This document shows positions 711-53,276 of a stretch of DNA of 64,000 nucleotides, piece by piece. How positions within the stretch are numbered: the stretch's first letter is position 1; each line of letters starts with the position of its first letter. The position numbers and the translations under genes are program-made. The stretch lies in NCBI GenBank assembly GCA_000092065.1, contig CP000588.1; one strand, 5' to 3'. The notes under the pieces were generated by a model that had not been told where the DNA came from, made no database searches, and worked only from the letters and a program-made list of their open reading frames with translations. Source of the DNA: Ostreococcus lucimarinus. Lineage: Eukaryota.

Positions 711-1823
711 TTAGGAATGAAGGAAATTGATCCCCTTTTTAATGCTAGCTTCCAGTTCTGGTAACATGCTCTCCAACGCGCGCTTCTCGTACGATGATAG
801 CGTTCCAGTGCCCGCCACGCGCTCCACGCCGTTTCGTCCGAGGAGCACCTTGGTGGCAAAAAAAGGCGCCCGCGTCGCCTTGCTCTCGACGTACGCACAC
901 GCCCATATTCCAGACTCACCGCTCAATCCTCTGAGACACGCATCCGCGAACTCCGCCGCGGCAGCGGCCATGGAGAGCGTGGCGCTTCCGGCGCCTCCCT
1001 TCGCTTCGACGACTTCGGTGCCACCGTTTTGGATTCGACTCGTCAACGCGCTCACTTCCTCGGGCGTAAACGAGCAACGCGGAGTGGTTTGAGACAGTAA
1101 CGGCAAAATCGTCGTCCCCGCGTGTCCACCGATCACCGGGACGTCCACCAAAGTCGGGTCGTCGAACCCTTTTGCCGCGGCGACGAACGTCTTCGCCCGC
1201 ATCACGTCGAGGTGCGTCACGCCCAAAAGTTTGCGCGCATCGTAACAACCGTGATTTTTAAACACTTCCGCCGCGATGGGAACCGTTGAATTCACGGGGT
1301 TGGATATGATATTTACGATCGCGTTCGGGCACGTCTTTGCCACACCCTCGCACAGTGTGCGGACGATCCCGGCGTTCACGCCGAACAAGTCGTCGCGCGA
1401 CATGCCCGGTTTGCGCGGCACGCCCGCGGGAATGATGACGAGGTCACATCCTCGTAAACACGCCTCAAGTTCGTCATCACCGACGTATCCGCTCACCTTC
1501 GCTCGCGTGTTCACGTGAGAGACGTCCGCGGCGACGCCTCGAACGACGGGCGCGACGTCGTAGAGTCGCAGTTCCGCCACCTTTGGATTCGCCTTGATGA
1601 ATGCGGAGAGCGTTTGCCCGATACCGCCCGCCGCGCCGAGGACGGCGACGGTGAACGACGCGCGCTTACCACCGATCCCGGACGCACCGAAGAACCAATC
1701 CACGAGCCCGACGCGCGCGGATGGCGCTTCCTGAGGCGTCTGCCGCGACGATGAGGCGGGATCGACGACTTGCGCGCGCAACGCGCCGACGCGACGCGCG
1801 GCGGCACCGACGGCGTTGGACAT
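711..1823 (-). CDS. MDH: NAD-dependent malate dehydrogenase with an N-terminal targeting extension (mitochondrial/glyoxysomal type)
   Basis: The translation contains the NAD-binding motif [12 protein letters not shown], the active-site segment [16 protein letters not shown] and the [13 protein letters not shown] motif. It aligns end to end with organellar NAD-MDH and has an N-terminal extension of about 50 aa. It is transcribed toward the telomere. Confidence 0.9.
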
Positions 1824-1992
1824 CGCACGATCGCCGCGCGCGTTCGCACGCGTCGTCCGTGTCTTTGGAGATCGATCGCCGTCTCGCGGAGGCGACGAGT
1901 GCGGATCGACGGGCTCGATTCGACGGGCGGTTTTCGTTCGGCGTAACGAACTCTCGCGGGGACGTCGGCGACGACGTCAGACCGCGAAGCGC

Positions 1993-2445
1993 ATGCCGTC
2001 GTCCCGCGCGGTCGTCGTCGTCGGCGGTGCATCGATGAAGATGACGTCGCGCAGGTCGCGCGCGCGGCGACTCTCGCGGCGAAGGGCGTCGTTCGACGAC
2101 GACGCCGGGTCGGGTGGCGACGCCGCGACGCCTCGCGTCACCGTGACGTTCGTGGACGCTTGGACGGGCGAGGAGCGCGTCGGGCGAGGCGAGATCGGGG
2201 TGACGAACGTACTCGCGCTCGCGGAGTCGTGCGGGGCGATCGAGGTGAACGACGACTTTTGTCTCGAAGGGCGGTGCGGAACTTGCTCGATGGAGGCGTT
2301 GGGGAACGACGGCGACGGCGACGGCGCGCCTCGGGACGTCGTGCTCGGCTGTCGAACGACGGTGGGCGAGGACGGGCGGTTGCGGTTTCGAGTGGGGTGC
2401 GGCACGACGCCGCGGTTCGATGATGACACGACTTGGTCGATGTAA
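1993..2445 (+). CDS. Small [2Fe-2S] ferredoxin-like protein with a putative N-terminal transit peptide
   Basis: The ORF shows a C-x4-C-x2-C...C cysteine pattern (FCLEGRCGTCSM ... LGCRTT) and a ferredoxin-fold layout (VTVTFVDAWTGEE...GVTNVLALAESCGAIEV). The start at M 1993 is a guess. It sits head-to-head with MDH, 170 bp apart. Confidence 0.45.
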   Translation: MPSSRAVVVVGGASMKMTSRRSRARRLSRRRASFDDDAGSGGDAATPRVTVTFVDAWTGEERVGRGEIGVTNVLALAESCGAIEVNDDFCLEGRCGTCSMEALGNDGDGDGAPRDVVLGCRTTVGEDGRLRFRVGCGTTPRFDDDTTWSM

Positions 2446-2513: not shown

Positions 2514-5500
2514 TCAGAATCCGTCAATCGCTTCGTCGTCTGACTCGGGGTAATTCTCCGCGACTGTCCCCATATTTTTTCTTCTCCTCCCGAACTTCTT
2601 TTGGAACAGTCGTCTTCGTTCGTCGAGAAAGCGCTGTCGTTCGGCGCGTTCAGTGACCTGGCGAAGGTATCGCGCCATCTTTGGTTTTGGTCGGCCGAAG
2701 AAGACGACATTGATTCTGGCGTACTCTCGCAAGCGTTCTACGGCGCTGTTCGTCGTGATAATCTCCTCATCAGTGACGTTCGGGCTCACGTGCTGCACCA
2801 ATGACATGCGAATGACGTTTTTCATTCTGTAGCAAAACTTGGCCGCGATGGTCGCCCGCAAACTTTCCAACGTGCTGTCCGTGAGCGTGATTTCGCGCAC
2901 GCCGACTTCTCCCAAGGCTTGCACCAACAAAATTTTGGGCTTAGTCCTGTGCTGCGCCGCTTTTCGGCGCTTTTCGTTGCCTTCACCGTCAACGATCACC
3001 CCGTTGAGCTCGAGATCGGCGACGAGAAGTTCGTGTAACTCGTTCGGAAACAGCTTGCCGGGCAACGACTTTGACTTGGAGATGCGAATGCGTGTTTTAA
3101 GGAGTCTGCCGCGCATGGTGTCCACCGTGAGCGTCATGTTCGCGCGATATGTATCGAATATTCCCCACGGCACCTCGACGTACGTGATTTGAGTCACTTG
3201 CGTGCCCTCGGTCGCAAAGATATCCTGATAGGTCACTTCTTCCTTCAACTTGAGATACCTCAGGAGAGTGTTGACGCAAAGTCGGCGCGTCGAAGACGTC
3301 GTTGAGTCGATAAACCCGTCGCGTCTGTCGACGTACACTCGCCGTGCAAAAGCACAACCAGCCGCAATCATGAGCCACGTGCCGAGGCTCAAGAGTATCC
3401 AGGGTACGTTCATATCCCACATGAGTGGGTAGCGAAAGTTCTTCGTGACGAACGAAACGCTCTCGGGGATTGTGAACGACGACCCGACGAGTCGATCGAG
3501 GATACGGAAGGCTAACAAGCCAATGAAGAGCGCGCATAACACGCGCTGACTCTGTCTATCGCCGCCAGCATCGTGCTCCATGAACTCGCGGCTTTGGTCA
3601 AGCGTCGCCCTCGTCGTGGCGATTGTTTTTGCTCGGTTGTCTCGCATCACTTCCTTCGCCTGTGCTTGCAAAGTACGCAAAAACTCTTGATTTGCCGAAT
3701 AGTGCTTGACACATCCCTTGACTCTCTTCGCAATCGTCGACTCGAGCACATCAATCGCCAGCGCGTGTTGCAGCCGCTTACTCGATTTCGTGTTCAGCGC
3801 GTAGTACATCGTCGTCCCCGTGATGGGCGTTTCGGGTTCTACGGATTCGCCGAATTGAATAATCGGCGTCTCGCTTGCTACCTCCATGTGTCGTATAGCC
3901 TCACCTAGACGGTACAAATTCGTATTCGTCTCAGCCAAGCTGACTTGAGCGCGACGCAACGTGTCGGGCTCATCGTGAACGCGCTCTAAAATCATTTGTA
4001 AATTTCTTAGCTCTTCCTTCATCGTGGACAATTTTTGGTATAGAACGGTGCAGAAATTTTCCCTCGCCCGCAAAAGGCAAAAGGCCATCAATAATGTCTC
4101 ATGCCGAGCGCAATCGGGACCAGCAAATATTATACCACCGGCACCGATGATGATGACGTCACTGTCGCTCACATCCAGCGCGTAGTGCGTATCGCCGATG
4201 AGCTGCTTAACCTCTGCCTCGATTGAATCGCCGTCGAGGTAGTGCCGCGCGCTGAGCTTGGGCGATATTGTCTCTGCCAGATACAGCGCAAACTTTGGTC
4301 TGTTAGCAAAATCTCCATCGTAAACAGTCTCAAGTACATTTCTCTGATAGAGCGACGTCATGCTCGCCGTGAGCTTGGAACTATCGACTTGCAAGTCGGC
4401 TACGACTCGACTGAGCCAATCGACTGGAATGTCGTTGAGAATTTTCGTCATGACGGATTCAATCTTCATACCGCAAACCAAGTCACCCTCTCGAGCGAAG
4501 CGAAGTCCAAACGACTCGATTTGCGTAATTCCAGCTGCTTCCGGATACTCGACTTCCGCCTCCACGTTGCAATACTGCGCCGCATTCGCCGAAGAGATGC
4601 TAATTCTCGTGAGTCCAACGGGGATCTCGAGACACGTATCCGTGCTCGCGCGATCGACTTCCGAGCTGTAATAGCCACCTTTGTTTCGATCAGAAACCCC
4701 CAAACTTTGCGACAACTCTGTGATTTGCGTACAACTCGTGGGGATCCAGTCGCCAATCAACACGATGACTCGACTCATGGACAGCTGGACGTCCAAATCG
4801 TCCGCTATACTGCTCAAACCTCGTATGGATTCTGAGGCGCGATACGCGTAGCTCGAAAGCGGCCGAGACGCGCTCTTCATGAACTGTCGACAAAGGTACG
4901 GCGAACAGACGTAAGAGACATCTTCGGATTCCGTCACTGTGCTATCGATGTTGAATCCTTCGTCGGAAACCAACTTGAACGTTTCCGTCTTTTCTTCAAA
5001 CACAACCTTGAGCAATGAACCTCTGGGGTCATACATGAATTCATCGCACAGCTCTTTATCTTCCCGAGAAATCGAACCTTGTCGCATGTATTCCAATCCC
5101 TTCTTCGATGGTTGATACGCCATCGTAGATTTCCCGTTGGACGTCGACATCCTTAACGAACGTACCATCCCCGCCTCGACTAAATCGTCGAGATTATCTC
5201 TCGCTTCTTGGGAGATATTCAGCATCATTCGTTTTGAACCGACTTCTTCACCGTATGGGGAGTAATCGTAGTCGAAAACACCAGCCAAGATCGCTTCGTA
5301 AACTAGAACCATGATGTGAAGATAACGAATCCAACGCTCCTTGTCCGTCGCCTTCTCAGCTAATCGACTATGCTTGCTAATAAAGTACAACAATTTGTAG
5401 TGCTCCGGCGTGAGAACGTCTACCACCGAATTCTTGAATAGTTGACTCTTCACTGACGAAGCCACATCTTTCGTTGGCCGGGCTGATGCTACCGCCATAG

Positions 5501-6416
5501 AGCTCGAGAGAGGATCTGAAGACGTCGTCGCGGCCGCGGACGCCTCAATCGCTCGATCAAACCAACGAATCGCGTACCCTTTATCCTGTGGTCTGTACGC
5601 ATCGGCGATCATGAAATCATAATTCAGCTTGTACGTTAAACGCTTGAACTCCTCGTCGTGCGCGTTGAACGCGGCGTCTTCTTTTGTATGACCAGTCACA
5701 AACAAGTACGCATGCGTCATGCCGTGAAGAAGCGCCTCCTTTGTCATTTGCGTCATTTTGAAGCGACGCAAAACGTCCGGCATACGCAAATGCGCCACGC
5801 GTGAATACTGCGACGCCCGTTTCTCGATGACACAGCACACCCCGACGCATAACTGCCTCGGGTTCGCCCCGTGCCACCACTTCGGCACATCGCTGCACAA
5901 ACAATACTTGAATAGACTGTCGAGTTTTGCTTTTTCGCCCATGTCTTCACTCTCATCGTCATTTCTATGCGACGGCGACGCGTGCCAAGAAAACGTGACG
6001 CGGCCGTTGAGTTTGCTTTCGAAATAAATCGAATCGTAGTACGCGAATAAACCGTCGACGTCTGTCCACTCAAGCGGATTGACGTCGCTCAGCGCCGCGC
6101 CGCGCTTCGCAGAGCGCACGCTCGAGAGCGCTTTGCGCCACGAACCGCGCGCTTTGGACTCGTTCGCCGCACCTACGTTAAATATCGACGCTCGCGTTTC
6201 CAGCACGCCTCTCCTTACGTCCTCTTCGTTGATTCTCCCGGTCGGTTGCGACTTTCGTCGTTCGTCTCGCTGAACGCGCAACTCTCTGTCCACGTCTTCT
6301 TTACGCGCGCTCGTGAACGCGACCGTCGCCGGCGTCCGCGCGATCGCACGACCAGGGTCAAGGTTTTCGCCCATCATCGTCGCCCGCGCGCGCTCTAACG
6401 AGTCCCTCAACGCCAT
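2514..6416 (-). CDS. Large (1300 aa) membrane protein with an N-terminal SprT/Spartan-like metalloprotease domain whose catalytic Glu is replaced by Gly
   Basis: Residues about 120-300 align with the Spartan/SprT domain: CVGVCCV...ALLHGMTHAYLFVTGH...NAHDEEF against human SCAGVC...LLHEMIHAYLFVTNN...GHGPEF. The HExxH motif reads HGMTH, so the three zinc-ligand histidines are kept but the general-base Glu is lost. The rest is long with predicted TM helices near the C-terminus; a DUF155/RMD1-like stretch (DVIIIGAGGIIFAG) is possible. Confidence 0.6.
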   Translation of the reverse strand: MALRDSLERARATMMGENLDPGRAIARTPATVAFTSARKEDVDRELRVQRDERRKSQPTGRINEEDVRRGVLETRASIFNVGAANESKARGSWRKALSSVRSAKRGAALSDVNPLEWTDVDGLFAYYDSIYFESKLNGRVTFSWHASPSHRNDDESEDMGEKAKLDSLFKYCLCSDVPKWWHGANPRQLCVGVCCVIEKRASQYSRVAHLRMPDVLRRFKMTQMTKEALLHGMTHAYLFVTGHTKEDAAFNAHDEEFKRLTYKLNYDFMIADAYRPQDKGYAIRWFDRAIEASAAATTSSDPLSSSMAVASARPTKDVASSVKSQLFKNSVVDVLTPEHYKLLYFISKHSRLAEKATDKERWIRYLHIMVLVYEAILAGVFDYDYSPYGEEVGSKRMMLNISQEARDNLDDLVEAGMVRSLRMSTSNGKSTMAYQPSKKGLEYMRQGSISREDKELCDEFMYDPRGSLLKVVFEEKTETFKLVSDEGFNIDSTVTESEDVSYVCSPYLCRQFMKSASRPLSSYAYRASESIRGLSSIADDLDVQLSMSRVIVLIGDWIPTSCTQITELSQSLGVSDRNKGGYYSSEVDRASTDTCLEIPVGLTRISISSANAAQYCNVEAEVEYPEAAGITQIESFGLRFAREGDLVCGMKIESVMTKILNDIPVDWLSRVVADLQVDSSKLTASMTSLYQRNVLETVYDGDFANRPKFALYLAETISPKLSARHYLDGDSIEAEVKQLIGDTHYALDVSDSDVIIIGAGGIIFAGPDCARHETLLMAFCLLRARENFCTVLYQKLSTMKEELRNLQMILERVHDEPDTLRRAQVSLAETNTNLYRLGEAIRHMEVASETPIIQFGESVEPETPITGTTMYYALNTKSSKRLQHALAIDVLESTIAKRVKGCVKHYSANQEFLRTLQAQAKEVMRDNRAKTIATTRATLDQSREFMEHDAGGDRQSQRVLCALFIGLLAFRILDRLVGSSFTIPESVSFVTKNFRYPLMWDMNVPWILLSLGTWLMIAAGCAFARRVYVDRRDGFIDSTTSSTRRLCVNTLLRYLKLKEEVTYQDIFATEGTQVTQITYVEVPWGIFDTYRANMTLTVDTMRGRLLKTRIRISKSKSLPGKLFPNELHELLVADLELNGVIVDGEGNEKRRKAAQHRTKPKILLVQALGEVGVREITLTDSTLESLRATIAAKFCYRMKNVIRMSLVQHVSPNVTDEEIITTNSAVERLREYARINVVFFGRPKPKMARYLRQVTERAERQRFLDERRRLFQKKFGRRRKNMGTVAENYPESDDEAIDGF

Positions 6417-6710
6417 CTCGCGACGCCGAACGCCCCGCGGCCTTCAGAGCGCAACGACTCTGACGCGCGCGCGAACGAACGAACGCGCGTCGTCGCCGTC
6501 GTCGCGCGCGTCGCCGCGTGCGATCGGTCGCGCGTCGTCGTCGTCGTCGTCGTCGTCGCCCGTACCCGCGTCCGCTCCTCCGAACTCGCGCGGCGCGACG
6601 TCTCGACCTCGACCGCCCGCGGGCGTGTGACGACCGGCGGAACGGTCCGGGACGACGCGGACGCGTCGTCACAACCACTCGCACCGCGTCGGTTTGCGGT
6701 GCGGGCGATC

Positions 6711-8939
6711 GGCATGGGACGACGACCGCGGTGGACGACGACGCTCGCGCTCGCCGTCGTCCTCGCGCTCGCCGTCGTCGAACGCGCGCGCGGCGACGAC
6801 GACGTCGACGCGCGAGATGATGGAACGCATCGTCACGGCAATCATCCGTCGACACCCACGCTCGGGGCGTCGTTCAAGGTTGAGATCGCGCACTTATCCA
6901 TCACCACGCCCGCGAGCGTGGTCGGGAAGTATGACATCGCGATAGCCAACTTCGGGCGAACGCTCTACGGCGCATCGCTCAGCGGCGCGTTGACGTATCC
7001 GCACGACGCGAGGCAGCGATTGGGTTGCGGCGCGGGCGCGACGATAGATATTCCAGAATCAGTCAAAGCGGCGCGCATGGCGGTGATTCTACTGCTCGAC
7101 CGCGGATCGTGCGCATTTACAGAGAAAGTGATGAATGGACAGAAGGCGGGAGCGGACGCGGTCATCATCGTTGACGATCGGGACGAGCCGCTATTGACTC
7201 CAGACGCGGCAAACGACGAAGGCACGGGTTCGTACGTCGACAACATCACGATTCCCGCGGCTTTGGCGAGAAAAGTGGACGGTTCGAAGTTCGAAGCTGA
7301 AATCGCACGCAACGAGCGCGTCATGGGGACGATGGATTGGCACGACGTCTTGCCGCATCCCGACGAACGCGTCGAATGGGAACTTTGGGCGGAGACAAAC
7401 GACGAGTGCGGACACACATGTCAGCAACAGAACGCATTCATGCGTGACTTTACACCGATCGCGAAGAGCTTAGAGCAAGGAGGGTACACGCAGTTTACCC
7501 CGCACTACATCACTTGGCAATGTATCGACAATCCGCCCACGACCGAGGCGTGTAAGGCGCAGTGCATAAATGTAGGCCGCTACTGCGCGCCGGATCCAGA
7601 CGCGGACATTCACGCGGGTTACTCTGGCGCTGACATCGTCATCGACAACCTTCGAGCGCTTTGTGCTTTTGACGTCGCGAATAAATCCAACGCGCCCTGG
7701 ATGTGGTGGGATTACGTCTCAGATTTCTCTGACGAGTGCACGATGGGCAATGGCAAATTCGCCATGCGCTCTTGCGCGGAGAAGGTAGCGAAGAACATCG
7801 GCATCGACGTCGACGCCATCAACGCTTGCATGGGTGATACTAACGGAGATCACACGAATCCTATGCTAGAAGCGCAAATCGCGGCGCAGAGTCCACCTGC
7901 GGGGAGTTCTCGGCGCGACATCCGGCTTCTTCCCACCATCTTGATCAACGGCGAGCGATACTCGGGAAAAATCGCGCGCGGCGAGGTGCTGACGGCACTT
8001 TGCGCCGGTTTCGATCAGGCATCTGTTCCGGCCATGTGTAGCGATGCCGGTTTGATGCACGCAGAGTGCGTGCGTGGTCAACAGGGAGACGTCACGTGCG
8101 CGGCGGATAAGGAGGGCGACGGGAAGACGGCGTGCAAGGAGACGGGATCGTTTCCGTATTACGAGTGCGCGTGTCCGGAAGGTTCCCAAAGCGTCGTCGG
8201 TCACGATGGCACGGAAAAGTGCGAATCCGTTAACATGTGCGCTCAAGCGATGCACGACATGGCGAACTGCTCGTGCGACCGTTGTGTGTGCACGAATCTC
8301 CAGCACGGAAAGTTTCAGTGTAAAACCGAAGCCGCCACGGCGTGCGACGAGCCTCTTTCGCGAGCCGCCACGTCTCAGGGGGGATGCTGGGCGAAGGACG
8401 GGTTCAGCGCGTGCGTCGATAATATTGACGCAAAACGCAAAGCGAGTAGAGAGGGGGGAAATCCCGACGAGGTACCAAGCGTCGTGTGCAAGTGCCCGAA
8501 GGGCTTTGAGGGCGACGGAACGACGTCGTGCGTGGAAATTGACGAGTGCAAAACAAAGTGCAAAGACTCGAACGCAAAGTGCGTCAACACGTATGGAAGT
8601 TACAACTGTACGTGTTCTGCGGGATACGCGGCGACGTATCAACCCGAGCCTGTCGATGATTGGATTTGTCTGTCGACGCATCGCAGCGGCGGCGCGAGTT
8701 TGGTGTTCACGAGCGTGTTGATGTCAATCCTCGGCGTTGCGAGCGCGTCGTACGCGTTTTACCAGTACCGCGCGCGTTCGTACATGGATCGGGAAATTCG
8801 ACAAATCATGGCGCAGTACATGCCTCTGGATCAACATCCGCCAGACGACGACGACGACTCGCCTTACGATCAACCGCCGCAGCGCGACTCCGCGAAGCAA
8901 AACATTTTACCGACGAGCATGGAACTGAGCGACTTTTGA
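6711..8939 (+). CDS. VSR: Plant-type vacuolar sorting receptor (VSR/BP-80 family)
   Basis: Signal peptide (MGRRPRWTTTLALAVVLALAVV), PA domain, cysteine-rich EGF-like repeats (CKCPKGFEGDGTTSCVEIDEC...NTYGSYNCTC), a single TM helix and a cytosolic tail with the YMPL sorting motif (IRQIMAQYMPLD) typical of plant VSRs. The first in-frame ATG at 6627 lies upstream of the signal peptide, so I favour M at 6711. Confidence 0.9.
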   Translation, partial: GMGRRPRWTTTLALAVVLALAVVERARGDDDVDARDDGTHRHGNHPSTPTLGASFKVEIAHLSITTPASVVGKYDIAIANFGRTLYGASLSGALTYPHDARQRLGCGAGATIDIPESVKAARMAVILLLDRGSCAFTEKVMNGQKAGADAVIIVDDRDEPLLTPDAANDEGTGSYVDNITIPAALARKVDGSKFEAEIARNERVMGTMDWHDVLPHPDERVEWELWAETNDECGHTCQQQNAFMRDFTPIAKSLEQGGYTQFTPHYITWQCIDNPPTTEACKAQCINVGRYCAPDPDADIHAGYSGADIVIDNLRALCAFDVANKSNAPWMWWDYVSDFSDECTMGNGKFAMRSCAEKVAKNIGIDVDAINACMGDTNGDHTNPMLEAQIAAQSPPAGSSRRDIRLLPTILINGERYSGKIARGEVLTALCAGFDQASVPAMCSDAGLMHAECVRGQQGDVTCAADKEGDGKTACKETGSFPYYECACPEGSQSVVGHDGTEKCESVNMCAQAMHDMANCSCDRCVCTNLQHGKFQCKTEAATACDEPLSRAATSQGGCWAKDGFSACVDNIDAKRKASREGGNPDEVPSVVCKCPKGFEGDGTTSCVEIDECKTKCKDSNAKCVNTYGSYNCTCSAGYAATYQPEPVDDWICLSTHRSGGASLVFTSVLMSILGVASASYAFYQYRARSYMDREIRQIMAQYMPLDQHPPDDDDDSPYDQPPQRDSAKQNILPTSMELSDF

Positions 8940-49891: not shown

Positions 49892-50401
49892 ATGGGTGAC
49901 GTGGCACAGTCGCGCGACATAGAATAACGATATTCTATATCTGCTTAATATTCTGCTTAAGATCTCGGCACTTTCGCTTAAGATCTCTTCAGAATGGAAT
50001 CTCTGAACGCAAGGCGTGGATGTACATTGAACCATGAACGAGGCGGGACGCTTTTTTGGATTACAAGTGTAGGTCTACTTTTACGTTTCGCGGACTCCGC
50101 TTGAGTCGGCCGATGTCACCATGTCAGGTGCTTCGAGTGCACTAGAGACGTGACCGCCGATACACAGGACGTCGAGCTCGGCGTGCCTGATTTCTTACTG
50201 GAAAAAGTACAGTTATTACAAAAGTTGTGTGGTGATTTTTTAGTTTCCGCTTTATATGTTTCGCTTGGCTGTTCCCTGATGATGCCGTTTAGGCGCGTTT
50301 GTGGTGACACCCTAGCTCTATCCTCGCTTTTCTGTATTTCATCAACTACGCAAAAGACACTCAGGCCGGAGTATACCAATATAACGGAGAATTTGCGGCC
50401 A

Positions 50402-51379
50402 TCACTGGCCTTCTTGCTCGAAAAGGGCGGCGTCGATGAGAAGCGCGGAACCGATGAGCGTCGATCGCATCGCCCTGTTCGACTTATCGGGCCAGTTGAC
50501 GCTGTAAACGTTCTTCTTGAAACAACACTCATTTTTGAACCCTGCCCAGAGGTCGGTGATGGCCGCTTCGCCGCCGTCGTGCGCCTCCATGGTCTCTGGG
50601 TCGCGAATGTAAAACGGCACACGGAAGCACTTGCCCTTGACGCCATCGAATTTACACTGCACGCAGCATCCACCGAAACACGTATTCGGGCGAATCATGT
50701 ACATGAGATTGTTCTGCGCGTCGAGTACTTTAAACTTGGGAACGAACAAGTGTAGGTCGCACATGTACTGCGTTCGCCCGAGCTTCGTGCCATTCGCGTC
50801 GAAGCTATCCATGTAAGGCAAACAGCAGCACATCGGACACCGCACGGCCCCGTCTTCGCTGCAACCTACAATGACATTCTGTCCGCACGTCTGATTCTTA
50901 CGATGCGTCAATACCGACTTACTATCGGGTGCCGTGCCGTGCTCGTCCTCCCACTCACGCCGATCCAACGTGCGATACGTGGTTGCCCGGCACCCAGGCG
51001 CCCAGCAGCTCCACGCGCGACCGCAATACCCGGCGTCTTCCTGAATCCAAAACTCCCCCTCTTGGAGCTGGTCGAAATCGATCTCCGCGCCTCTCGGGAC
51101 TTGATGCGCAATCGTCCAATGGATGTTCGGCTGGCACACGAAGCAGCGACAACACTCGTTGGTCTTTTGCTTGAGAAGGATCCCGTTCGAGTCGAGATGT
51201 TCGTCGAACGCGGACATTTGTTGCGCCGGAGGGGCAACGCATGCCATAGGAGAGGGTGCCATCTCTATTGGAACGACTCGCGTTGTGACGGCGACGACGA
51301 CGCGATCTGCCCGCACGCAATTTAGGGTAAATCTGACGATAACTTTGCCCAAATTATCGTCAAAATTAAGGTCTGTCAA
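50402..51379 (-). CDS. Phospholipid scramblase family protein
   Basis: Cys-rich palmitoylation-type motif (RCPMCCCLPY) and a C-terminal hydrophobic helix ending LLIDAALFE, as in PLSCR proteins. The gene is about 57% GC, lower than its neighbours. Confidence 0.65.
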   Translation of the reverse strand: MTDLNFDDNLGKVIVRFTLNCVRADRVVVAVTTRVVPIEMAPSPMACVAPPAQQMSAFDEHLDSNGILLKQKTNECCRCFVCQPNIHWTIAHQVPRGAEIDFDQLQEGEFWIQEDAGYCGRAWSCWAPGCRATTYRTLDRREWEDEHGTAPDSKSVLTHRKNQTCGQNVIVGCSEDGAVRCPMCCCLPYMDSFDANGTKLGRTQYMCDLHLFVPKFKVLDAQNNLMYMIRPNTCFGGCCVQCKFDGVKGKCFRVPFYIRDPETMEAHDGGEAAITDLWAGFKNECCFKKNVYSVNWPDKSNRAMRSTLIGSALLIDAALFEQEGQ

Positions 51380-51620
51380 TAACTTTTACTCGTCAATCCT
51401 TGAGTTAATTAGAGGGGGTCGAAGTTATGAAAAAGTTATGAAAATTGACTCTTAGTCGTTTACGCATAACTCGGGGCATAAAGTTATCAAAACGCTTTAC
51501 TCTTAGTCCAATAACGATAACTTTGCCATTAAAGTCGTAGTTATCGTCAAAGTTATCTACGTTAGTCGGCCTTAGAAAACAAAAGACATCTTTGATTAAA
51601 AGTCTTCTCTACAGTCCTTG
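51291..51620. repeat. AT-rich repeat-dense element (possible MITE-like insertion or promoter repeats)
   Basis: Repeated motifs gataactttgcc (x2), ttatcgtcaaag (x3) and aagttatgaaaa (x2). There are imperfect terminal inverted repeats (gacgataactttg at 51332 and caaagttatc within gttatcgtcaaagttatc at 51540). The local GC of about 35% is very different from the flanks. Confidence 0.4.
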
Positions 51621-53276
51621 TCCCGTTATCGTCAAAGCCATCCCTTGTAACTGCGTCAATGCTTCGTGTAGTCGCAGTTGCGCTTTGATTTTCAACTGGA
51701 TTCTACGCAATGCGTTGTCCACAGCCGAACTCGCGCCGACGTCGCCACCGTACAAGTCGACGATTCGGTTCGCAATGTTCACCATCTGCGCCGTGTGGCG
51801 CGGCTTGGAGATATTTTTCTCTATATACTCCAAAATCGGAAGCAGCGACTGGTCGTCGCGGTTGGCGAGTGCCTTCTGAAGCCCCCCTCTTCGACCGACT
51901 TCTTCTATGACTGCGGCGACAACTTCCGCCCTACCCACGTGCAACGCCGCGTCCAGGGCGTCTCCGTATCTAAATTGTTTCAACATTCGATCGTGCGCGG
52001 CCAAGTGCACACGTCGTCGACGAAGCACTCGCGTGGCGTCTGCCGCCGCTTTAGAGTTTTGACCTCGAATAAAGTACCGCCAATGACTCGCATCCAGTCG
52101 TCGAGGTTTCTTCACCGTGAAGCCCTTCTTTTTACTTCGAACGCCTTGATACCCCGAAGGGTCGTCACTGTTACGAGGTTTCGTTCGTCTGCGAACGCTC
52201 AATACTTTATTGGCTAGTCCAGTGGCAAGGCAGTTCGCGTCTGGCGAGAGCGAGCACGTCAGCACGGGTCCAGGGTACTTGATCGAGTGCGTCACGGTGA
52301 AAGTGTCGAGTTCGTGAATCTTGACGAAGCCGTCCAAGGAGCCGGTGATCATGCGAGGCGCGTTTGATTCGAGCGCGCTTTCGCTACCGATCTCATATCC
52401 AGATGCGAACGATGGCGGGCCCGCGTCCGGGTGCACGTGCACGGTGGTGATGGTCTTCTGGTGACTGCGCAACCGACGAAGCAACCGGCCGCCGCCGATG
52501 GCGTCCCACACGCACACGTCCTCGCCACCGACGGAGACGAGCAAGTTTCCGTTGGGATACCACGCGACATCTTCCACGGGCGAACCATGATCGAGCGTCA
52601 TCACCGCCTCGCGTCCTTGTCTAGCGTCCCAAATTTTCACCGTGTGGTCGTACGACCCGCTCGCCCACATCTCTTGAGAAACCGTACTCCGCTCGAGCGC
52701 TCGAACGTAATCCGTGTGCCCATCGTGCCTTCGCACGCAATTCCCAGTGGAAATATCCCATATTCGCACCGTCGCGTCGTCGCTCGCCGACCCTAAGTGC
52801 AGCTTATCCGCGCTCCATCGCACCGCGCGAACCGCCGCGGAGTGCGTCGTAAACTTTCTCAAAACCGCTCGCGACCCGCAATCAAACAACTGCACCACCC
52901 CAGCCTGTCCTCCGACCGCCAGCGCCTTCCCATCGTCTCTCAGCACACCACTGTACGCCACGTCCTTAAATCGCGCGAACGTCCTCAATTTTCTCGCTCC
53001 GCTCGGCGCGTACAGCGTCACCCTCGCCCCGCTCGTCGCCGCCAACGCGCCGCGTTCGCCCCCCGACGACCCCGCGCCTCCGTACGACACGCTCGTCACC
53101 GCGTTCACCTGTTCGCTCAGCGCGGTGGATTTATATTCTCGCCAGTACCTTCCCTCGCCCGTCTCTCGCTTCGCTCGCGCGGCGTAGCGTTTGATTGGAA
53201 GTTTTCGGTACTCGCCCAAACCGGCGGCGAAGAATCCTCCCGCGTCGCCGCGCGCGTTGTGCTCGCGCGCGTCCAT
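51609..53276 (-). CDS. UTP15: WD40-repeat protein, UTP15-like (U3 snoRNP / SSU processome)
   Basis: N-terminal YRKLPIKRY...GEGRYWREYK, then WD40 blades (VRIWDISTGNCVRRHDGHTDYVRAL, VKIWDARQG, VCVWDAIGG) and a helical C-terminal domain. Start taken at M 53276. Confidence 0.6.
   Translation of the reverse strand: MDAREHNARGDAGGFFAAGLGEYRKLPIKRYAARAKRETGEGRYWREYKSTALSEQVNAVTSVSYGGAGSSGGERGALAATSGARVTLYAPSGARKLRTFARFKDVAYSGVLRDDGKALAVGGQAGVVQLFDCGSRAVLRKFTTHSAAVRAVRWSADKLHLGSASDDATVRIWDISTGNCVRRHDGHTDYVRALERSTVSQEMWASGSYDHTVKIWDARQGREAVMTLDHGSPVEDVAWYPNGNLLVSVGGEDVCVWDAIGGGRLLRRLRSHQKTITTVHVHPDAGPPSFASGYEIGSESALESNAPRMITGSLDGFVKIHELDTFTVTHSIKYPGPVLTCSLSPDANCLATGLANKVLSVRRRTKPRNSDDPSGYQGVRSKKKGFTVKKPRRLDASHWRYFIRGQNSKAAADATRVLRRRRVHLAAHDRMLKQFRYGDALDAALHVGRAEVVAAVIEEVGRRGGLQKALANRDDQSLLPILEYIEKNISKPRHTAQMVNIANRIVDLYGGDVGASSAVDNALRRIQLKIKAQLRLHEALTQLQGMALTITGQGL

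Follow-up and report, generated by a model that had tools for sequence, protein, structure and literature searches.

Positions 2514-6416 of a 64,000-nucleotide stretch of Ostreococcus lucimarinus contig CP000588.1 (assembly GCA_000092065.1; hereafter the window) hold, on the minus strand, one uninterrupted open reading frame (ORF) of 1300 residues in which a metalloprotease domain of the SprT/Spartan type is joined to a membrane protein with two predicted transmembrane (TM) helices. Proteases of the SprT family, such as SPRTN (Spartan), Wss1 and GCNA, are known from the nucleus, where these soluble enzymes clear away DNA-protein crosslinks. In the window protein, the residue at the position of the general-base glutamate of Spartan is a glycine, the three zinc-ligand histidines are kept, and by analogy with Spartan the SprT domain is most likely a conserved pseudoprotease that does not cut. 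The features of the gene and its neighbors are collected in Table 1.

A Spartan-type SprT domain in a single reading frame

The fusion of an SprT domain to a membrane protein, which was proposed in the initial annotation of this sequence, is borne out by several observations. Public assemblies contain a protein, P0001, that matches the window protein at 100% identity, and orthologues of 1199-1393 residues are collinear with it over their full length. Homologue searches of marine metagenomes, Tara, MMETSP and NCBI sequences yielded at least 19 clusters of collinear proteins, either full-length or partial, and a functional name is absent from all of them. Of the searches seeded with alignments, the one with the full alignment contributed a single extra protein, and the one restricted to the SprT segment gave fragments alone. 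In complete MMETSP transcripts of a relative, the HGMTH motif of the SprT domain and the motif of the first TM helix lie within one ORF.

PF10263 (SprT-like) was the sole match in a Pfam scan of the whole protein (residues 190-266, E=4.7e-5), and at 23.6 bits it falls just under the curated cut-off of 25.6 bits for that family; a scan against NCBIfam gave zero matches. Several orthologues exceed the Pfam cut-off on their own (range 27.0-43.4 bits), including P0127 (43.4 bits), P0013 (33.5 bits), P0272 (30.2 bits) and P0002 (27.7 bits). When the single sequence was compared with the PDB, the only solved structures matched were two crystal structures of the human Spartan SprT domain (6mdw, E=0.004). 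The match to 6mdw reached E=3.4e-8 with a profile of 18 orthologues (A1) and E=8.5e-12 with a profile of the SprT segment only (A4), the alignment of which extended over the strands at the N-terminus (positions 24-51 of the Spartan chain); the two profiles span Spartan chain positions 24-123. With the latter profile, the metalloprotease sub-domain of SPRTN (6mdw/6mdx) was the best and only significant match among solved structures. By these sequence comparisons, the Spartan-type SprT domain of the window protein is genuine. The similarity had initially been assigned to the N-terminal 180 residues, and this needs adjusting: the likeness to SprT is significant in the profiles and orthologues, but the domain occupies residues ~111-285, after a leader, and the window protein alone stays below the Pfam threshold.

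The leader (residues 1-110) has a predicted local distance difference test score (pLDDT) below 50 in the first AlphaFold2 model, and the hydropathy scan of the window protein found no peak N-terminal to residue 363. Since the leader is devoid of hydrophobic segments, no signal peptide is expected.

As in Spartan, N-terminal strands are followed by the H-x-x-x-H helix and then by a third histidine, which lies 17 residues past the second in the window protein versus 14 in Spartan, and the local sequence (LLHxMxHAYLFVT) is close to that of Spartan. Unlike in Spartan, the protease sub-domain of the window protein is followed by neither a zinc-binding sub-domain (ZBD) nor a basic region. No cysteine occurs in residues 254-334, and the whole-protein Pfam scan gave no match downstream of the sub-domain; because the linker there lacks cysteine, a ZBD or zinc ribbon can be ruled out at this location. 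A further difference from Spartan is a Cys/His-containing insert of ~20 residues that is specific to this protein family, mapped to residues ~165-210 (FKYCLCSDVPKWWHG...GVCC...AHLR), which has no Spartan counterpart. Four residues of this insert, C172, H182, C195 and H209, are nearly invariant across the fused homologues and might form a second metal site.

The catalytic glutamate position and its evolution

In the alignment with Spartan, LLH231-G232-MT-H235...NAH253DEEF of the window protein lies on LLH111-E112-MI-H115...GH130. All three histidine ligands are thus present, the glycine at position 232 corresponds to the general base E112, and both points agree with the initial annotation. H231, H235 and H253 are invariant in the A4 alignment and near-invariant overall, many flanking residues are also invariant, and the three histidines would be expected to bind zinc. 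The codon for G232 reads GGC, which is two substitutions away from GAA or GAG, and independently assembled copies of the protein (P0019, found on 234 contigs, and P0020, P0021, P0029 and P0032) also read HGMTH. These two facts exclude a sequencing error at this codon.

SprT-bearing members of the family were collected by homologue searches, a deep search of representative sequences and a metagenome scan. About 25 fused homologues have a residue other than glutamate at the catalytic position. It is glycine in the window protein, P0004, P0005, P0008, P0009 and P0010; alanine in P0002, P0003, P0015, P0016, P0239, P0263 and P0264; serine in P0006, P0007, P0011-P0014, P0100, P0200 and P0101; and glutamine in P0017. 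The Mamiellales-like orthologues all carry glycine, alanine or serine, and the P0101 cluster includes the EukProt protein P0272 of Prasinoderma coloniale. The canonical motif is kept in P0127 (LLHEMIHAYLYL...DH) and P0227 (LLHEMGHAFLFL...EH), and HEMxH therefore stands on the same core in two deeper fused lineages, P0127/L003 and P0227. L003 is a metagenomic contig with a relative of P0127 (82% identical) in which HEMIH is followed by the same core, encoded by a single 998-residue ORF that is collinear with residues 49-1081 of the window protein. This ORF ends within TM helix 1 (…MQMIFAGSLA*, stop at 4697-4699), and tblastn similarity runs on in frame to nucleotide 5161; the stop could be a sequencing error, a read-through site or the mark of a pseudogene in the contig.

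In a neighbor-joining tree of core residues 335-600, the SprT-bearing proteins cluster with 67% bootstrap support, and Prasinoderma, with serine at the catalytic position, is basal among them. The glutamate-bearing L003/P0127 pair is sister to the glutamine-bearing P0017 (72%), and these jointly stand next to the Mamiellales-like clade (92%). Because two more distant fused lineages keep HExxH, inactivity would be a derived state. If the glutamate is ancestral, the tree tentatively suggests, with moderate bootstrap values, that it was lost more than once.

Mean pairwise identities, computed per segment, indicate how the glutamate-less domain has been maintained. For the SprT segment, identity is 73% among ten close orthologues and 46% between two Mamiellales-like groups; the corresponding values are 72% and 51% for the best-conserved core segment, 45% and 18% for the leader, and 38% and 25% for the linker, the length of which varies among the close orthologues. 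In conservation, the SprT domain matches the best core segment and stands well above the leader and linker. Judging by these comparisons, the zinc-ligand histidines and the rest of the glutamate-less domain are held by strong purifying selection. Variation of the former glutamate site among glycine, alanine, serine and glutamine, beside invariant neighbors, fits a position that has been freed from catalytic constraint, and the pattern is that expected for a folded, functional domain that needs no catalytic base.

The E112A and E112Q substitutions in SPRTN abolish auto-cleavage, substrate cleavage and complementation (PMC9240642). Since these mutants are proteolytically dead, the SprT domain of the window protein is probably a pseudoprotease. 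The description of the protein as a probably inactive SprT paralogue thus keeps its basis in the missing glutamate and needs two qualifications, namely that inactivity appears to be derived, given the HExxH of two fused lineages, and that it is argued from the SPRTN mutants.

The membrane core, its family and the neighborhood of the gene

Precomputed matches to PF27231 ('MJ1567') and PF27230 ('MJ1566_N') are on record for P0001 and every homologue. A deep search with a profile of residues 101-1300 against 1.84 billion representatives returned 2137 matches at E<=1e-3, 450 of them at E<=1e-30. Almost all matches are proteins of ~750-1050 residues in which the similarity starts near their own N-terminus at profile position ~233 (window residue ~335) and ends around profile positions 1000-1040, and nearly all are without an SprT domain. 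Collinearity with eukaryotic members of ~800-900 residues was also seen by BLASTP. Because the family matches start at residue ~335, the SprT domain is seen as a lineage-specific add-on to a large family that otherwise lacks it. The initial view of an SprT paralogue with a membrane anchor is right in placing SprT on a membrane protein, but a more fitting description is that a member of the PF27231 and PF27230 family gained an SprT domain.

An AlphaFold2 model of residues 330-1145, based on an alignment of 61 diverse family members, has a pLDDT of 89.6 and a predicted template modeling score of 0.76, with pLDDT above 90 for residues ~335-599. The model runs from helix/beta-hairpin units in the first ~270 residues, some of which (e.g., residues 400-445) look like winged helices, to a large beta-sheet/alpha domain, two helices (~45 and 30 residues), a 60-residue stalk helix, TM helix 1, a short loop, TM helix 2 and an alpha+beta domain. 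Hydropathy and the structure models agree on two TM helices, which gives a number to the membrane helices predicted at first, and TM helix 2 is the most hydrophobic segment family-wide. TM helix 1 bears the family motif AG.LAF.I.DR..G. The motif is polar and places a conserved Asp-Arg pair within the predicted membrane span, which would suit pore lining or an inter-subunit salt bridge. A DUF155/RMD1-like region, which had also been suggested, was not found: Pfam DUF155 failed to match the window protein (E<=10) and did not match any of 10 diverse family members (E<=1).

In the model, the core has the features by which CorA, Mrs2 and ZntB of the MIT superfamily are recognized at the level of fold, namely an alpha/beta domain in the cytoplasm that leads through a stalk helix to a C-terminal pair of TM helices. 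Unlike those proteins, it has no GMN signature and carries ~270 extra residues before the CorA-like part and ~270 after the TM pair. The GMN (G-M/V/I-N) signature is absent from the window protein, and G[MIV]N occurs in the TM region of 4 of the 61 family members. A relation to CorA is claimed at the fold level only, because sequence comparisons revealed no similarity: hhalign of the core alignment (A5) against Escherichia coli CorA gave a probability of 0.5%, Pfam CorA matched one of 10 diverse family members (E=0.12), and a PDB sequence search with a 61-sequence core profile returned designed coiled coils and noise only, with no CorA. Thus, on the modeled structure, the core is CorA-like in fold and is not a CorA family member.

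Two further domains follow the TM pair. The alpha+beta domain at residues 1034-1140 corresponds to E705-785 and H795-808 of AlphaFold2 model mc2a68f86454f (pLDDT 78-93); Foldseek matches to Bet v 1-like folds are weak, and their assignment to this domain is uncertain. The beta-grasp domain, which falls within the last ~140 residues and has pLDDT ~76-83 in the first AlphaFold2 model, matched the ubiquitin-like domains DIX, PB1 and TBCB/TBCE in Foldseek (probability 1.0, target TM-score 0.52-0.66, E 0.04-0.09). It is absent from most SprT-less relatives, which end before it, and is present in P0103. Strict co-occurrence of the SprT and beta-grasp domains was considered and rejected, as the SprT-less P0103 aligns across the beta-grasp region.

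The archaeal proteins MJ1567 and MJ1566 lend their names to PF27231 and PF27230; the names suggest two Methanocaldococcus proteins, and here there is one chain. A scan of genome contigs for archaeal or bacterial relatives of the core found only two contigs, both labeled as bacterial metagenome-assembled genomes (MAGs). One (JAIYDP010000015.1, 'Verrucomicrobiaceae MAG') has a eukaryote-type core at 3783-6228 and, read with the bacterial code, hardly any long ORFs, and the other (JAGQJP010000227.1, 'Myxococcales MAG') has a eukaryote-type core member at 6001-6684. Both are probably eukaryotic contamination of MAGs, with the ORF check covering the first. Among the family members examined, the sole named one is an oomycete protein. 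The SprT-less P0102, P0109 and P0114 carry the JGI name 'WD repeat-containing protein 35', and in P0114 (KAF1331198.1, Globisporangium splendens) WDR35/IFT121 propellers and tetratricopeptide repeats (residues 1-766) are fused to the family core (residues 833-1302). The name was rejected for the family, because its source is this oomycete gene model, a fusion, from which the annotation probably spread as an artefact.

The genes for malate dehydrogenase and for a vacuolar-sorting-receptor homologue, which flank the fusion gene, are typical nuclear genes of green picoalgae. A GC content of ~60% and the relatives in Tara and MMETSP data are in keeping with a Mamiellales genome. Between the malate dehydrogenase gene and the fusion gene lies an ORF of 209 residues with a cysteine cluster (CLEGRCGTCS) reminiscent of 2Fe-2S ferredoxins and no Pfam match. 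GC content dips to 0.50-0.52 at 4001-6000 and 50001-52000, against a window mean of ~0.60, and the first of these dips overlaps the 5' two-thirds of the fusion gene.

Table 1. Position, extent and basis of the features of the fusion gene and of its neighbors in the window
Feature	Position	Strand	Residues	Basis
Complete single-exon ORF, 1300 residues plus stop	2514..6416	-	1-1300	ORF list; identical P0001; collinear orthologues
Basic leader, poorly conserved, without hydrophobic segment	6087..6416	-	1-110	Identity, hydropathy, pLDDT
SprT-like (Spartan-type) metalloprotease sub-domain, including family-specific insert	5562..6086	-	~111-285	PF10263, Spartan profile matches
Family-specific Cys/His-containing insert	~5790-5924	-	~165-210	Alignment of fused homologues
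HGMTH in place of HExxH	5712..5726	-	H231-G232-M-T-H235	DNA read; alignment to Spartan HEMIH
GGC codon of G232	5721-5723	-	232	DNA read
Third zinc-ligand His, equivalent to Spartan H130	5658..5660	-	253	Alignments; invariant in A4
Variable Ser/Ala/Thr-rich linker, no Cys	5415..5561	-	286-334	Identity, length variation, sequence
N-terminal part of widespread core, boundary approximate	4620..5414	-	~335-599	Deep-search starts, PF27231, AlphaFold2
Predicted beta-sheet/alpha cytoplasmic domain and long helical stalk, CorA-like fold, boundaries approximate	3567..4619	-	~600-950	
Predicted TM helix 1	3486..3554	-	955-977	Hydropathy 2.05; AlphaFold2 helix 954-977; family conservation
Predicted TM helix 2	3339..3407	-	1004-1026	Hydropathy 1.82; within AlphaFold2 helix
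Predicted alpha+beta domain after TM pair, same membrane side as N-terminal domains	2997..3317	-	1034-1140	AlphaFold2
Predicted beta-grasp (ubiquitin-like) fold domain	2697..2939	-	~1160-1240	First AlphaFold2 model, Foldseek
Malate dehydrogenase gene	711-1823	-		
ORF with Cys cluster	1816-2445	+	209 in all	
Vacuolar-sorting-receptor homologue	6627-8939	+		

Possible roles of a glutamate-less SprT domain on a membrane protein

What might an SprT domain without its general base do on such a protein? We propose that the product of the gene is a two-pass membrane protein and belongs to a widespread eukaryotic family with an 'MJ1567' plus 'MJ1566_N' core. The membrane-proximal half of this core would have the CorA architecture, in which a long stalk links an alpha/beta domain in the cytoplasm to a C-terminal pair of TM helices. 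The core may have gained its N-terminal Spartan-type sub-domain in a group of green picoalgae that includes Mamiellales-like lineages along with Prasinoderma and a few relatives of uncertain identity, and in the lineage of the window protein the general-base glutamate would then have given way to glycine as selection kept the three zinc-ligand histidines. Such a domain would fold and bind zinc and would not hydrolyze peptide bonds, serving instead as a binding or regulatory module, a pseudoprotease, on a CorA-shaped and probably oligomeric membrane protein. Because no signal peptide is expected and two TM helices are predicted, the SprT module should share one side of the membrane, most simply the cytosolic one, with the core domains and the C-terminal beta-grasp domain. 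Candidate ligands are an unfolded peptide segment, in which case the module may act as a substrate trap, a metal, in which case it may act as a sensor, or a nucleic acid. Behavior as a metal sensor is attractive because the core is CorA/ZntB-like, and a nucleic acid is less likely because the ZBD and basic region of Spartan are absent.

On balance, we lean toward an SprT module that is specific to this lineage, binds zinc without catalyzing cleavage and faces the cytosol from a membrane protein with a CorA fold. A more far-reaching version, which we put forward tentatively as a doubtful possibility, is that the SprT/Spartan protease lineage has here its first member with a membrane anchor, and that this member is at the same time a naturally occurring SprT pseudoenzyme. 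Its zinc-binding, non-catalytic domain would then have been recruited by a CorA-fold membrane protein family of archaeal ancestry, either to sense ligands or metals in a regulatory role or to trap substrates, at the cytosolic funnel. Three points weigh against a non-catalytic module. Inactivity is argued by analogy with SPRTN; the active-site geometry is of low confidence, as the sole model that covers the SprT part (the first AlphaFold2 model, from 19 sequences and residues 101-1300) has pLDDT 30-50 there and below 50 throughout its N-terminal 440 residues, which is too poor for SprT geometry; and the relatives with HExxH imply that the family has, or once had, a proteolytic role, which leaves room for residual or alternative catalysis.

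Comparison with known systems places the protein apart from each of them. Spartan is soluble and nuclear and carries SHP, PIP and UBZ motifs (PMC9240642), whereas the SprT domain described here has glycine for the catalytic glutamate and sits on a membrane protein with two TM helices. Wss1, a WLM-type DNA-protein crosslink protease of yeast, has a protease sub-domain without a ZBD (PMC9240642) and resembles the window protein in this respect. Unlike Wss1, the window protein matched only PF10263 with no match to the WLM family, has no catalytic glutamate and is predicted to be membrane-anchored. The iRhoms and Derlins offer a functional analogy in which a protease fold that has lost catalytic residues is kept under selection on a membrane protein for client binding or regulation. 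Those are intramembrane rhomboids, however, and the domain considered here is a soluble zinc-metalloprotease domain of unrelated fold.

A more specific version of the non-catalytic module is that its three-histidine site serves as a sensor of a divalent metal (Zn2+ or similar) that gates or regulates a CorA/ZntB-like channel core, on the model of CorA regulation by cytoplasmic Mg2+ sites. This would account for metal-ligand histidines kept in the absence of the catalytic residue, and it suits the CorA/ZntB/MRS2-like fold of the core and the many invariant acidic residues of the cytoplasmic domain. We nevertheless consider it unlikely, as the GMN selectivity motif is missing in 57 of the 61 family members and ion transport by the family is a fold analogy in proteins with no CorA sequence similarity. 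Moreover, most family members have no SprT domain, which implies that it is dispensable for core function, and the HExxH relatives point to an origin from a protease rather than a sensor. Those same relatives, with the strong conservation of the domain and the full set of zinc ligands, could instead be taken to mean that the domain still cleaves membrane-proximal substrates, using another residue or a zinc-bound hydroxide. A conserved glutamate four residues upstream of the first histidine (KEALLH) might seem suited to this task, but Spartan has it too (VETLLHEM) and it does not rescue E112A or E112Q (PMC9240642). Glycine, alanine and serine are incapable of acting as a general base, and the position varies freely among small residues, which makes an active protease quite unlikely.

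It is also conceivable that an ancestral fusion left the SprT segment behind as a relic that has no function and is decaying, a reading that would explain why the catalytic residue is gone, probably several times over, and why the window protein scores slightly under the Pfam cut-off. Conservation of the segment that equals the top core region and lies far above the leader and linker, however, and histidine ligands and many other residues that are invariant in deeply diverged lineages including Prasinoderma make a relic very improbable. The chance that the architecture is an artefact, whether through an error in the glutamate codon or a false fusion of adjacent genes, is practically negligible: the codon differs from a glutamate codon at two positions, the motif recurs in many independent assemblies and orthologues, and the uninterrupted ORF, the collinear orthologues and the complete transcripts of a relative span both parts.

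The SprT domain and the core family are each already catalogued. The new observations are that the two are fused, that the catalytic residue has been lost in a conserved manner and that sister lineages retain HExxH. A literature search found nothing that mentions PF27231, PF27230, MJ1566 or MJ1567, and a full-text search found no description of an SprT-like protein in Ostreococcus and no paper on SprT-type pseudoproteases.

A glutamate-less SprT domain tethered to a membrane protein implies that this fold is used outside DNA repair, and the membrane pseudoproteases would gain a zinc-metalloprotease case. A second point of interest is the core family itself, a large eukaryotic group of over 2000 representative clusters that has a CorA-like fold, lacks the GMN signature and is listed in Pfam with no described function. 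The algal fusions with SprT and beta-grasp domains and the HExxH relatives offer experimental handles on this family. Its function is at the stage of a proposal, and the architecture is both unusual and experimentally tractable. The hosts are ecologically dominant marine picoalgae with related strains that can be cultured, and if the proposal is true, the HExxH sister lineages would provide a ready pair of active and inactive forms for dissecting the role of the SprT domain.

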